A stretch of 64,000 bases of DNA from Ectothiorhodospiraceae bacterium (GTDB lineage Bacteria > Pseudomonadota > Gammaproteobacteria > GCA-002705445 > GCA-002716945), in contig BOXR01000003.1 in the NCBI GenBank assembly GCA_019651095.1, positions 7,106-71,105 on the forward strand. Reading direction: 5' to 3'. The notes below the pieces were generated by a model. That model saw only the letters and a program-made list of their open reading frames with translations, did no database searches and was not told the origin of the DNA. The translations under genes were made by a program, and so were the position numbers. This document shows, piece after piece, positions 32,000 through 33,428 of the stretch (its first letter is position 1; every line of letters starts with the position of its first letter).

Positions 32000-32003
<4 letters not shown>

Positions 32004-32270
32004 ATCTGACTTATTCTTTTCTTTTGATAATTTTGATAACTATATCTGCTTTTGGTGTAATTTTTGTGAAATATCAAAATAGAATGCTCAATATTGAAAT
32101 ATCCAAAAATGAAAAAAAACTATTTTACCTCTCAGAGTCATATAGACAATTACTTAAAGAAGCAAACTGAAATGACGGATAGAAAGCTTCAGAAAAATAG
32201 TTTAGGAGAGGCATTAAATATGCAGCTGCCTACGAAAGAAAGAATTTTAATCATGAAAGTAGAACATTAG
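32000..32270 (+). CDS. ftsL: cell division protein FtsL; one frame break
   Basis: [28 protein letters not shown]... has a single TM span and sits after rsmH. The tail ...LNMQLPTKERILIMKVEH is in another frame. Confidence 0.6.
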
Positions 32271-32279
32271 GAGGACACC

Positions 32280-33428
32280 ATGTTTGAAATAGTTAATAAT
32301 TATAATCAAAACGCAGTTATCAAAGTCATTGGTGTTGGAGGTGGCGGCGGTAACGCAATCATTCTCGATGCTGAAATCACAGATCCATGGAGCTGATTTT
32401 TTAATTGCAAATACTGATGTACAAGCATTACGAGATGTAGATGGAGCTACAACTGTTCAAATTGGGTCTGAAATAACAAAGGGGCTAGGTGCTGGAGCTG
32501 ATCCTGAAAAAGGAAGACAAGCAGCTCTGGAAGCGAGTGAGACACTTAAAGAGTCAATTGAGGGAGCTGACATGCTCTTTATTGCTGCTGGAATGGGCGG
32601 AGGTACAGGAACTGGTGCCGCGCCAGTAATAGCTCAAATCGCAAGAGACCTTGGTATTCTCACGGTTGCAGTTGTTACAAAACCATTCGATTTCGGAGGG
32701 TCCGGAGAGGATGTCCAATGCTCAAGAGGGCATCAACAATCTCGAACAGTGGGTTGATTCATTAATTGTTATTCCAAATTCTAAGCTTAAAGAGGTATAT
32801 GGAGGTAGCGAATCAATATTTTCTTCCTTTGAGAACGCAAACGATGTTTTAAGAGGAGCCGTAAAAGGTATAACAGAGATAATTACTATCCGAGGATTTA
32901 TGAACGTAGACTTTGCCGACGTAAAAACTGTCATGTCCGGGATGGGTAAAGCAATGATGGGTTCAGGTGTATCATCTGGAGAAAATAGGGCAGTTGAGGC
33001 TGTTACAACAGCATTAAGCAGTCCTTTGTTGGATAATATTGACCTTCAAGGGGCAAGTGGTGTTTTAGTTAATATCACATCTGGTTCTGACTTAACAACA
33101 GATGAATTTGAGGTGATTGGAAGCAAAATAAAAGAGATCGCAAATGAAGATGCCAAGATTATAACAGGATGTATTAAAGAGGATGATAATATTGGTGATC
33201 TTAGAGTTACAATAATTGCGACTGGATTTGCTCAAACTAGCCCTGCAGATACACTATCTTCGGAGGCGAGCTCACCGAATTAGATAAGGCGCTATAAACA
33301 ATAGTAATTCGTCAATCATACCAGGAAATCAGATCTCTGATGAGTCAATCGCACAGGTGAATGTTAACCAGCAAGATGATCAGACTTCAATTGATATACC
33401 TGCGTTTTTAAGACAGCAGGCAGATTAA
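32280..33428 (+). CDS. ftsZ: cell division GTPase FtsZ, in a non-canonical position; at least 3 frame breaks
   Basis: [48 protein letters not shown] (fragments 32329..32757, 32651..33283) and the C-terminal [21 protein letters not shown] 9 nt after the ftsL stop. Confidence 0.95.

Follow-up and report, generated by a model that had tools for sequence, protein, structure and literature searches.

In the window (the whole 64,000-nt stretch of DNA analysed here), ftsZ lies between ftsL and ftsI, and comparison across genomes makes it nearly certain that this relocation is real and clade-wide in an order of uncultured marine Gammaproteobacteria (~1 Mb, ~32% GC; a single family in the genome collection searched). 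Around it we propose a broader reading, to which we assign a probability of about 0.8, namely that the relocation is old and real and that features of the new junction would together fix a high ratio of FtsZ to FtsI. [quoted passage not shown]

On the + strand the window carries dusA, a SAM-methyltransferase-like gene, rnpB, mraZ, a mini J-domain gene, rsmH, ftsL, ftsZ and ftsI, followed by murE, murF, mraY, murD, ftsW, murG, murC, murB, ddl, ftsQ, ftsA, lpxC and secA; the full division and murein set (mraZ to ftsA, including murB, ddl and ftsZ) occupies 30392–47442 on that strand. Gene order was established by tblastn with proteins from a clean relative and by Pfam, the reference being locus L025 (genome G013, 99% complete), which was NCBIfam-annotated before its proteins were projected onto the window by tblastn. 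These searches and the raw sequence bear out several claims of the preliminary description: that ftsZ sits between ftsL and ftsI in the dcw order, that a J-domain gene separates mraZ from rsmH, that 64 nt are all that lie between ftsA and lpxC, and that ftsZ starts 9 nt past the ftsL stop behind an AGGAGGA site. Its span for ftsZ, 32000–33428, was right at the end of the gene and wrong at the start, as 32000 is where ftsL begins and ftsZ begins at 32280. The elements concerned are these:

29937–30264, + strand: rnpB (RNase P RNA, class A), a full-length match to Rfam RF00010 (267 bits, E 1.7e-86) and the 5' border of the cluster.
30392–30882, + strand: mraZ, from tblastn with the TIGR00242-annotated MraZ of L025; a 2-nt indel lies near 30720.
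30882–31068, + strand: mini gene of ~62–65 aa encoding a J-domain only (Pfam DnaJ PF00226); 1-nt indel at 31018.
31065–32003, + strand: rsmH, from tblastn, interrupted by several 1-nt insertions; its stop codon shares the sequence ATGA with the ftsL start.
32000–32270, + strand: ftsL, from TIGR02209 on the L025 orthologue and tblastn; 1-nt insertion at 32154, stop TAG at 32268–32270.
32269–32275, + strand: Shine-Dalgarno (SD) site of ftsZ, AGGAGGA, with a GGAGG core kept here in all genera.
32280–33428, + strand: ftsZ, with PF00091, PF12327 and TIGR00065 matches and alignment to L042; ATG at 32280.
33429–33454, + strand: A-rich spacer from the ftsZ stop to the hairpin, open in the ftsI reading frame.
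33455–33480, + strand: conserved mRNA hairpin with an 11-bp stem, GGCUGCUGUUA / UAACAGCAGCU, and loop UUUA.
33412 to ~35133, + strand: ftsI reading frame, from tblastn; the membrane helix RLLLFITAALVIFLLIIT has no ATG, GTG or TTG ahead of it, and five 1-nt indels lie downstream.
46197–47442, + strand: ftsA, from TIGR01174 on the orthologue and tblastn; 1-nt indel at 47011.
47443–47506, + strand: ftsA–lpxC spacer of 64 nt, the place of ftsZ in other Gammaproteobacteria.
47507–48414, + strand: lpxC, from TIGR00325 on the orthologue and tblastn; 1-nt indels at 47711, 48171, 48297 and 48315.

The succession of ftsA, ftsZ and lpxC is absent from the window: ftsA ends at 47442, lpxC starts at 47507 and ftsZ occupies its own interval far upstream. 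A second ftsZ, which the preliminary description had advised looking for, was not found in the 737-kb genome, all matches falling at this one site.

The same order (ftsL-ftsZ-ftsI ... ftsQ-ftsA-lpxC-secA) is present in the window and in 23 other genomes, spanning all six genera (g1–g6) of the order. Single-cell genomes (AG-894-P10, AG-461-I20 and AG-390-N19), Tara Oceans short-read MAGs, a nanopore MAG and a long-read Mediterranean MAG are included among these 24. Genomes from other families of the same class, by contrast, all have ftsA–ftsZ (9 of 9), with lpxC detected directly next in eight, and neither ftsL nor ftsI adjoins ftsZ at any of 66 further loci from many phyla. The standard succession mraZ-rsmH-ftsL-ftsI is kept in seven outgroups, where ftsI starts with ATG. 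The preliminary description had held that ftsZ was truly displaced from an ftsA-ftsZ-lpxC arrangement, to be given up if relatives proved canonical; the relatives share the displaced order, a clade-wide extent that the preliminary description had missed. Because that order is fixed in all six genera, with one ftsZ per genome, and the class-mates are canonical, the relocation, as read from comparative gene order, is an old, shared derived trait of the order.

One might instead suppose that ftsZ was mis-joined between ftsL and ftsI in an error-rich record whose true order is ftsA-ftsZ-lpxC, and the record does contain many base-level errors, in a genome of five contigs that is 69% complete. Yet both junctions recur identically in the 23 other genomes, obtained by different assembly methods and belonging to six genera; the ftsL–ftsZ spacer, the SD site and the hairpin after ftsZ are all conserved; and no ftsZ remnant was found within the 64-nt gap between ftsA and lpxC. 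As single-cell, short-read and long-read assemblies agree on the order, a shared assembly artefact is excluded, and on the comparative data an assembly chimera is already refuted, with a probability that we regard as negligible.

The errors in the record nonetheless affect how its genes are to be read. The preliminary description missed that ftsZ is split in this record by four 1-nt indels (+1 at 32364, +1 at 32695, −1 at 33274/5 and −1 at 33290/1), placed, like the ftsL indel, by alignment to the closest relative, which is 88.5% identical. Because of these frameshifts, the pieces of the window ftsZ each fall short of the TIGR00065 cut-off of 295 bits (192, 156 and 20 bits, against 386–399 bits for intact orthologues). 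Against the closest relative over 20 kb (G010, 87% identical), we counted 44 frame-breaking indels of 1–2 nt in those 20 kb, or ~2.2 per kb, and most essential genes of the cluster are affected. Indels of the same sign come in runs, with 12 consecutive insertions at 31018–32695 and mostly deletions at 33275–34836 and 37200–38121, a blocky pattern that suggests patchy coverage or polishing of the record. Between 29000 and 49200 in the window the indels have no link to homopolymers, and the stretches 35000–37200 and 42000–43790 are clean.

The 44 indels of these 20 kb, four of them in ftsZ, could also, in a small and incomplete assembly, be taken as real, with ftsZ and much of the cluster decaying in this organism as in a degenerating symbiont. 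We consider this very unlikely: most of the essential cluster genes are affected, yet substitutions remain overwhelmingly synonymous, the same-sign runs are typical of consensus errors, the genome holds no second ftsZ, and the genes are intact in close relatives. After frame correction, dN/dS is 0.018–0.17 across all 19 genes (ftsZ 0.038, ftsA 0.018, mraY 0.035), and the corrected window ftsZ has a pN of 0.023 against its closest orthologue, L042. As the indels are widespread and the frame-corrected dN/dS nevertheless low, the frameshifts in the window are, with high probability, assembly errors; their pattern fits the consensus errors of a poorly polished assembly and not gene decay, and the frameshifts of this record should not be mistaken for the latter.

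ftsZ itself is under strong purifying selection. Its translation displays the glycine-rich GTP-binding loops GVGGGGGN and GMGGGTGTG, and it ends in all members with the same 11-residue C-terminal FtsA/ZipA-binding peptide, which is of the E. coli type (DIPAFLRKQAD). We favour an internal move of ftsZ from the ftsA–lpxC site to the ftsL–ftsI site, although the same arrangement could have arisen if a foreign ftsZ had entered between ftsL and ftsI and the native gene behind ftsA had then been lost. The FtsZ tree recovers the order as monophyletic (99/99) and does not separate these two histories; that the order's FtsZ is a clade on a long stem, with a weakly supported position among Gammaproteobacteria (60/87), would suit replacement, but rapid evolution in streamlined genomes would produce a long branch just as readily. 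Moreover, the best outside FtsZ matches are gammaproteobacterial (53–55% identity) and the E. coli-type C-terminal peptide also speaks against a foreign origin, so that we hold replacement to be improbable and retain the internal move.

The neighbouring positions of ftsA and ftsZ are believed to contribute to the FtsA/FtsZ ratio. The preliminary description had claimed that the coupling of this pair was broken, and physical separation of the two genes is what we observe; its further proposals, that the move would change stoichiometric control and would bring ftsZ under the 5' promoters of the cluster, are reasonable. In this AT-rich DNA a promoter scan of the region was uninformative, with fewer promoter-like hits than in shuffled sequence.

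At its new position ftsZ is preceded by a GGAGG 6–9 nt before its ATG, conserved in every genus, and in the eight genomes analysed the predicted duplex with the anti-SD sequence has an energy of −10.0 to −10.8 kcal/mol. [quoted passage not shown] By these predictions ftsZ has by far the strongest SD site in the cluster, and the only strong one. Most genes of the clade are without SD sites, SD-independent initiation being the norm.

Downstream of ftsZ, the junction with ftsI has the sequence features of a translationally coupled pair: the ftsI frame reaches the ftsZ stop, its predicted SD energy is ~0, and 18 of 21 members lack any ATG, GTG or TTG ahead of the membrane helix in ftsI (RLLLFITAAL... 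or WRQYFILFIVSI...). In the remaining three an in-frame canonical codon (ATG in L025 and L125, TTG in L026) stands at the foot of the hairpin, and ordinary initiation of ftsI is therefore possible in some lineages. Outgroup ftsI genes, by comparison, have an ATG and a tail of 10–25 residues before the helix. No stop interrupts the ftsI frame from the ftsZ stop to the helix in 22 of 22 genomes, a count that amounts to ~9 semi-independent lineages, with a chance expectation of 0.3–0.7 per genome; the other two frames of the spacer usually contain stops. Counted from the end of the ftsZ stop, the frame is open from −17 nt (33412 in the window). Spacer lengths step in multiples of three (22, 25 and 28 nt) except in genus g4, where the spacer is 30 nt and ftsI lies in frame with ftsZ directly behind the ftsZ TAG (open from +0).

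No single near-cognate ftsI start is common to all members, and since near-cognate codons (ATT, ATA, ATC, CTG) abound in AT-rich DNA, finding them close to the stop is no evidence by itself. An ATG overlapping a Trp codon (ATGG) was considered as the ftsI start and discarded: most members have it out of frame, most of genus g1 lacks it, and there is no shared slippery site to restore the frame. As a practical consequence, gene callers will mis-start or truncate ftsI in these genomes.

The third feature of the junction, which like the start-less ftsI had escaped the preliminary description, is a stem-loop ~24–30 nt 3' of the ftsZ stop, present in every member, whose sequence varies by lineage while the pairing persists. 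For genus g1, 97.7% of hairpin cells are paired and both sides have changed at 5 of 11 pairs; for the other five genera the values are 95.1% and 4 of 12, whereas register-shifted controls pair at just 23–70%. G-U cells outnumber non-pairs (12 vs. 3 in the genus g1 alignment, A1), which fits a structure in the sense-strand RNA. Among 44-nt windows the hairpin is one of the most stable in each of eight 20-kb loci (the top one in five), and it is the only stable window that recurs at the ftsZ–ftsI junction in these loci. It overlaps the stretch of ftsI that encodes the N-terminal tail and membrane helix. No counterpart was found at the ftsI starts of the seven outgroups, and an Rfam search of 27000–50000 assigned no known family to the hairpin, rnpB being the sole match.

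Such a stem (11–15 bp with 3–6 GC pairs, −12 to −19 kcal/mol) is of the kind found in intrinsic terminators. The hairpin could thus be a partial terminator or a stabiliser of the ftsZ 3' end, with ftsI starting normally, at a non-AUG or overlooked codon and independently of ftsZ translation. This alternative draws on the stability of the stem, on the good U-run that follows it in several members (L028, L030, L045, L048 and L128) and on the prevalence of SD-independent initiation in the clade. It nevertheless offers no reason for the ftsI frame to stay open as far as the ftsZ stop; the first 8 nt after the stem hold 4 U in the window and 3–7 across members, with a good run in about one-third and a poor tract in the window, L042, L023, L025 and L031; the terminator scan did not call the site; and ~13 essential downstream genes would be starved unless internal promoters exist. 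With a good U-tract confined to some of the members, a uniform terminator role is doubtful, and we regard the alternative as a whole as rather unlikely.

Coupling of ftsI to ftsZ would accommodate these features as follows. ftsZ would share the transcript of the cluster's 5' genes, and translation from its strong ribosome site would determine its high output. The cell would need far less FtsI than FtsZ; in E. coli the FtsI level is perhaps a hundredth of that of FtsZ. Ribosomes that have just completed ftsZ would be the main source of FtsI, through inefficient restart at a near-cognate codon near the stop, and the hairpin would limit independent ribosome entry, and/or attenuate transcription, and/or stabilise the ftsZ 3' end. 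The SD site, the start-less ftsI and the hairpin would together fix the high FtsZ:FtsI ratio. That ftsI expression is coupled to and throttled by ftsZ, as the junction sequences suggest, is a tentative proposal to which we give a little under even odds. A stricter form, in which ftsI would have no initiation site of its own and FtsI would come only from ftsZ ribosomes restarting at non-AUG codons with the hairpin as a gate, seems unlikely, and its extreme version, slippage or read-through yielding a little FtsZ–FtsI fusion, highly improbable at best, because the recoding would have to differ between genus g4 (read-through) and the rest (a +1 shift). If the strict form were true, the ratio of ring protein to septal wall synthase would be hard-wired in one mRNA junction. 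With its strong ribosome site, covarying hairpin and start-less ftsI, the new junction is a natural experiment on the dosage of FtsZ, FtsA and FtsI, and at ~120 nt it is small enough for direct reporter testing.

Other parts of the cluster and its surroundings also differ from the usual plan. The mini J-domain gene (Pfam DnaJ, E 5.8e-12 in the window and 2.1e-14 in L025, at L025:2497–2694) stands at the mraZ–rsmH junction in all six genera and is absent from the seven outgroup mraZ–rsmH junctions; on this comparison the order has altered its dcw cluster in a second way of its own. It overlaps its neighbours through stop and start codons. rnpB lies directly upstream of mraZ on the same strand, and the sole decent promoter-like site in the region (29902–29929, TTGATT-16-TATAAT) precedes rnpB, not mraZ. 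murC is missing from the cluster in g2 (L025 and L026) and g5 (L031), where murG is followed directly by murB (L025 14181–15050); the window (42414–43808) and other g1 loci have a murC-like match at that place, and g4 (L030) has a murC-sized gap there.

Three further contigs carried divergent ftsZ genes. One of 28% GC (L140, G031:C19:1–20000) reads mraZ-rsmH-ftsL-ftsI-ftsZ-murE-murF-mraY..., with ftsZ (9657–10958) overlapping the end of ftsI by 11 nt. Because its FtsZ is just 44% identical, this contig, although binned with a relative, probably comes from another organism, and its arrangement is apparently a different, independent forward move of ftsZ; it resembles the order in belonging to a low-GC marine lineage and in having ftsZ in the 5' half of the cluster, and differs in the insertion point and the companion genes. 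The other two, L141 (G039:C6) and L127 (G039:C2), belong to one MAG with about 5% contamination and carry identical foreign ftsZ genes, 47% identical to that of the order, ~860 nt after murB and with no detectable ftsA match; they are probably contamination or a duplicated contig from another taxon.

Set beside the dcw cluster of E. coli K-12 (mraZ-rsmH-ftsL-ftsI-murE-murF-mraY-murD-ftsW-murG-murC-ddlB-ftsQ-ftsA-ftsZ-lpxC), the cluster described here is like the canonical proteobacterial one in gene content, in its single strand and tight packing, in having lpxC and secA next, and in the relative order of every gene except ftsZ. It departs from the canonical form in having ftsZ between ftsL and ftsI, so that ftsA abuts lpxC, in the J-domain mini-gene between mraZ and rsmH with rnpB directly upstream, and in an ftsI that in most members is without a canonical start, its beginning lying within a conserved hairpin.

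The ftsZ–ftsI junction resembles known termination–reinitiation pairs (trpB–trpA; MS2 coat/lysis) in that the downstream gene carries no SD site, its frame extends to the upstream stop or beyond it into the upstream gene, and the upstream gene is highly translated. It differs from them in that restart there occurs at AUG, GUG or UUG whereas here there are mostly near-cognate codons and then a stable hairpin, and in that for ftsZ and ftsI we infer the coupling. Intercistronic stem-loops are also known to set differential expression within operons, as with the REP element of malE–malF and in the Rhodobacter puf operon. As in these systems, a stable, conserved hairpin stands directly 3' of a high-demand cistron; unlike in them, it lies inside the coding start of the next gene, and its pairs covary while the encoded peptide changes.
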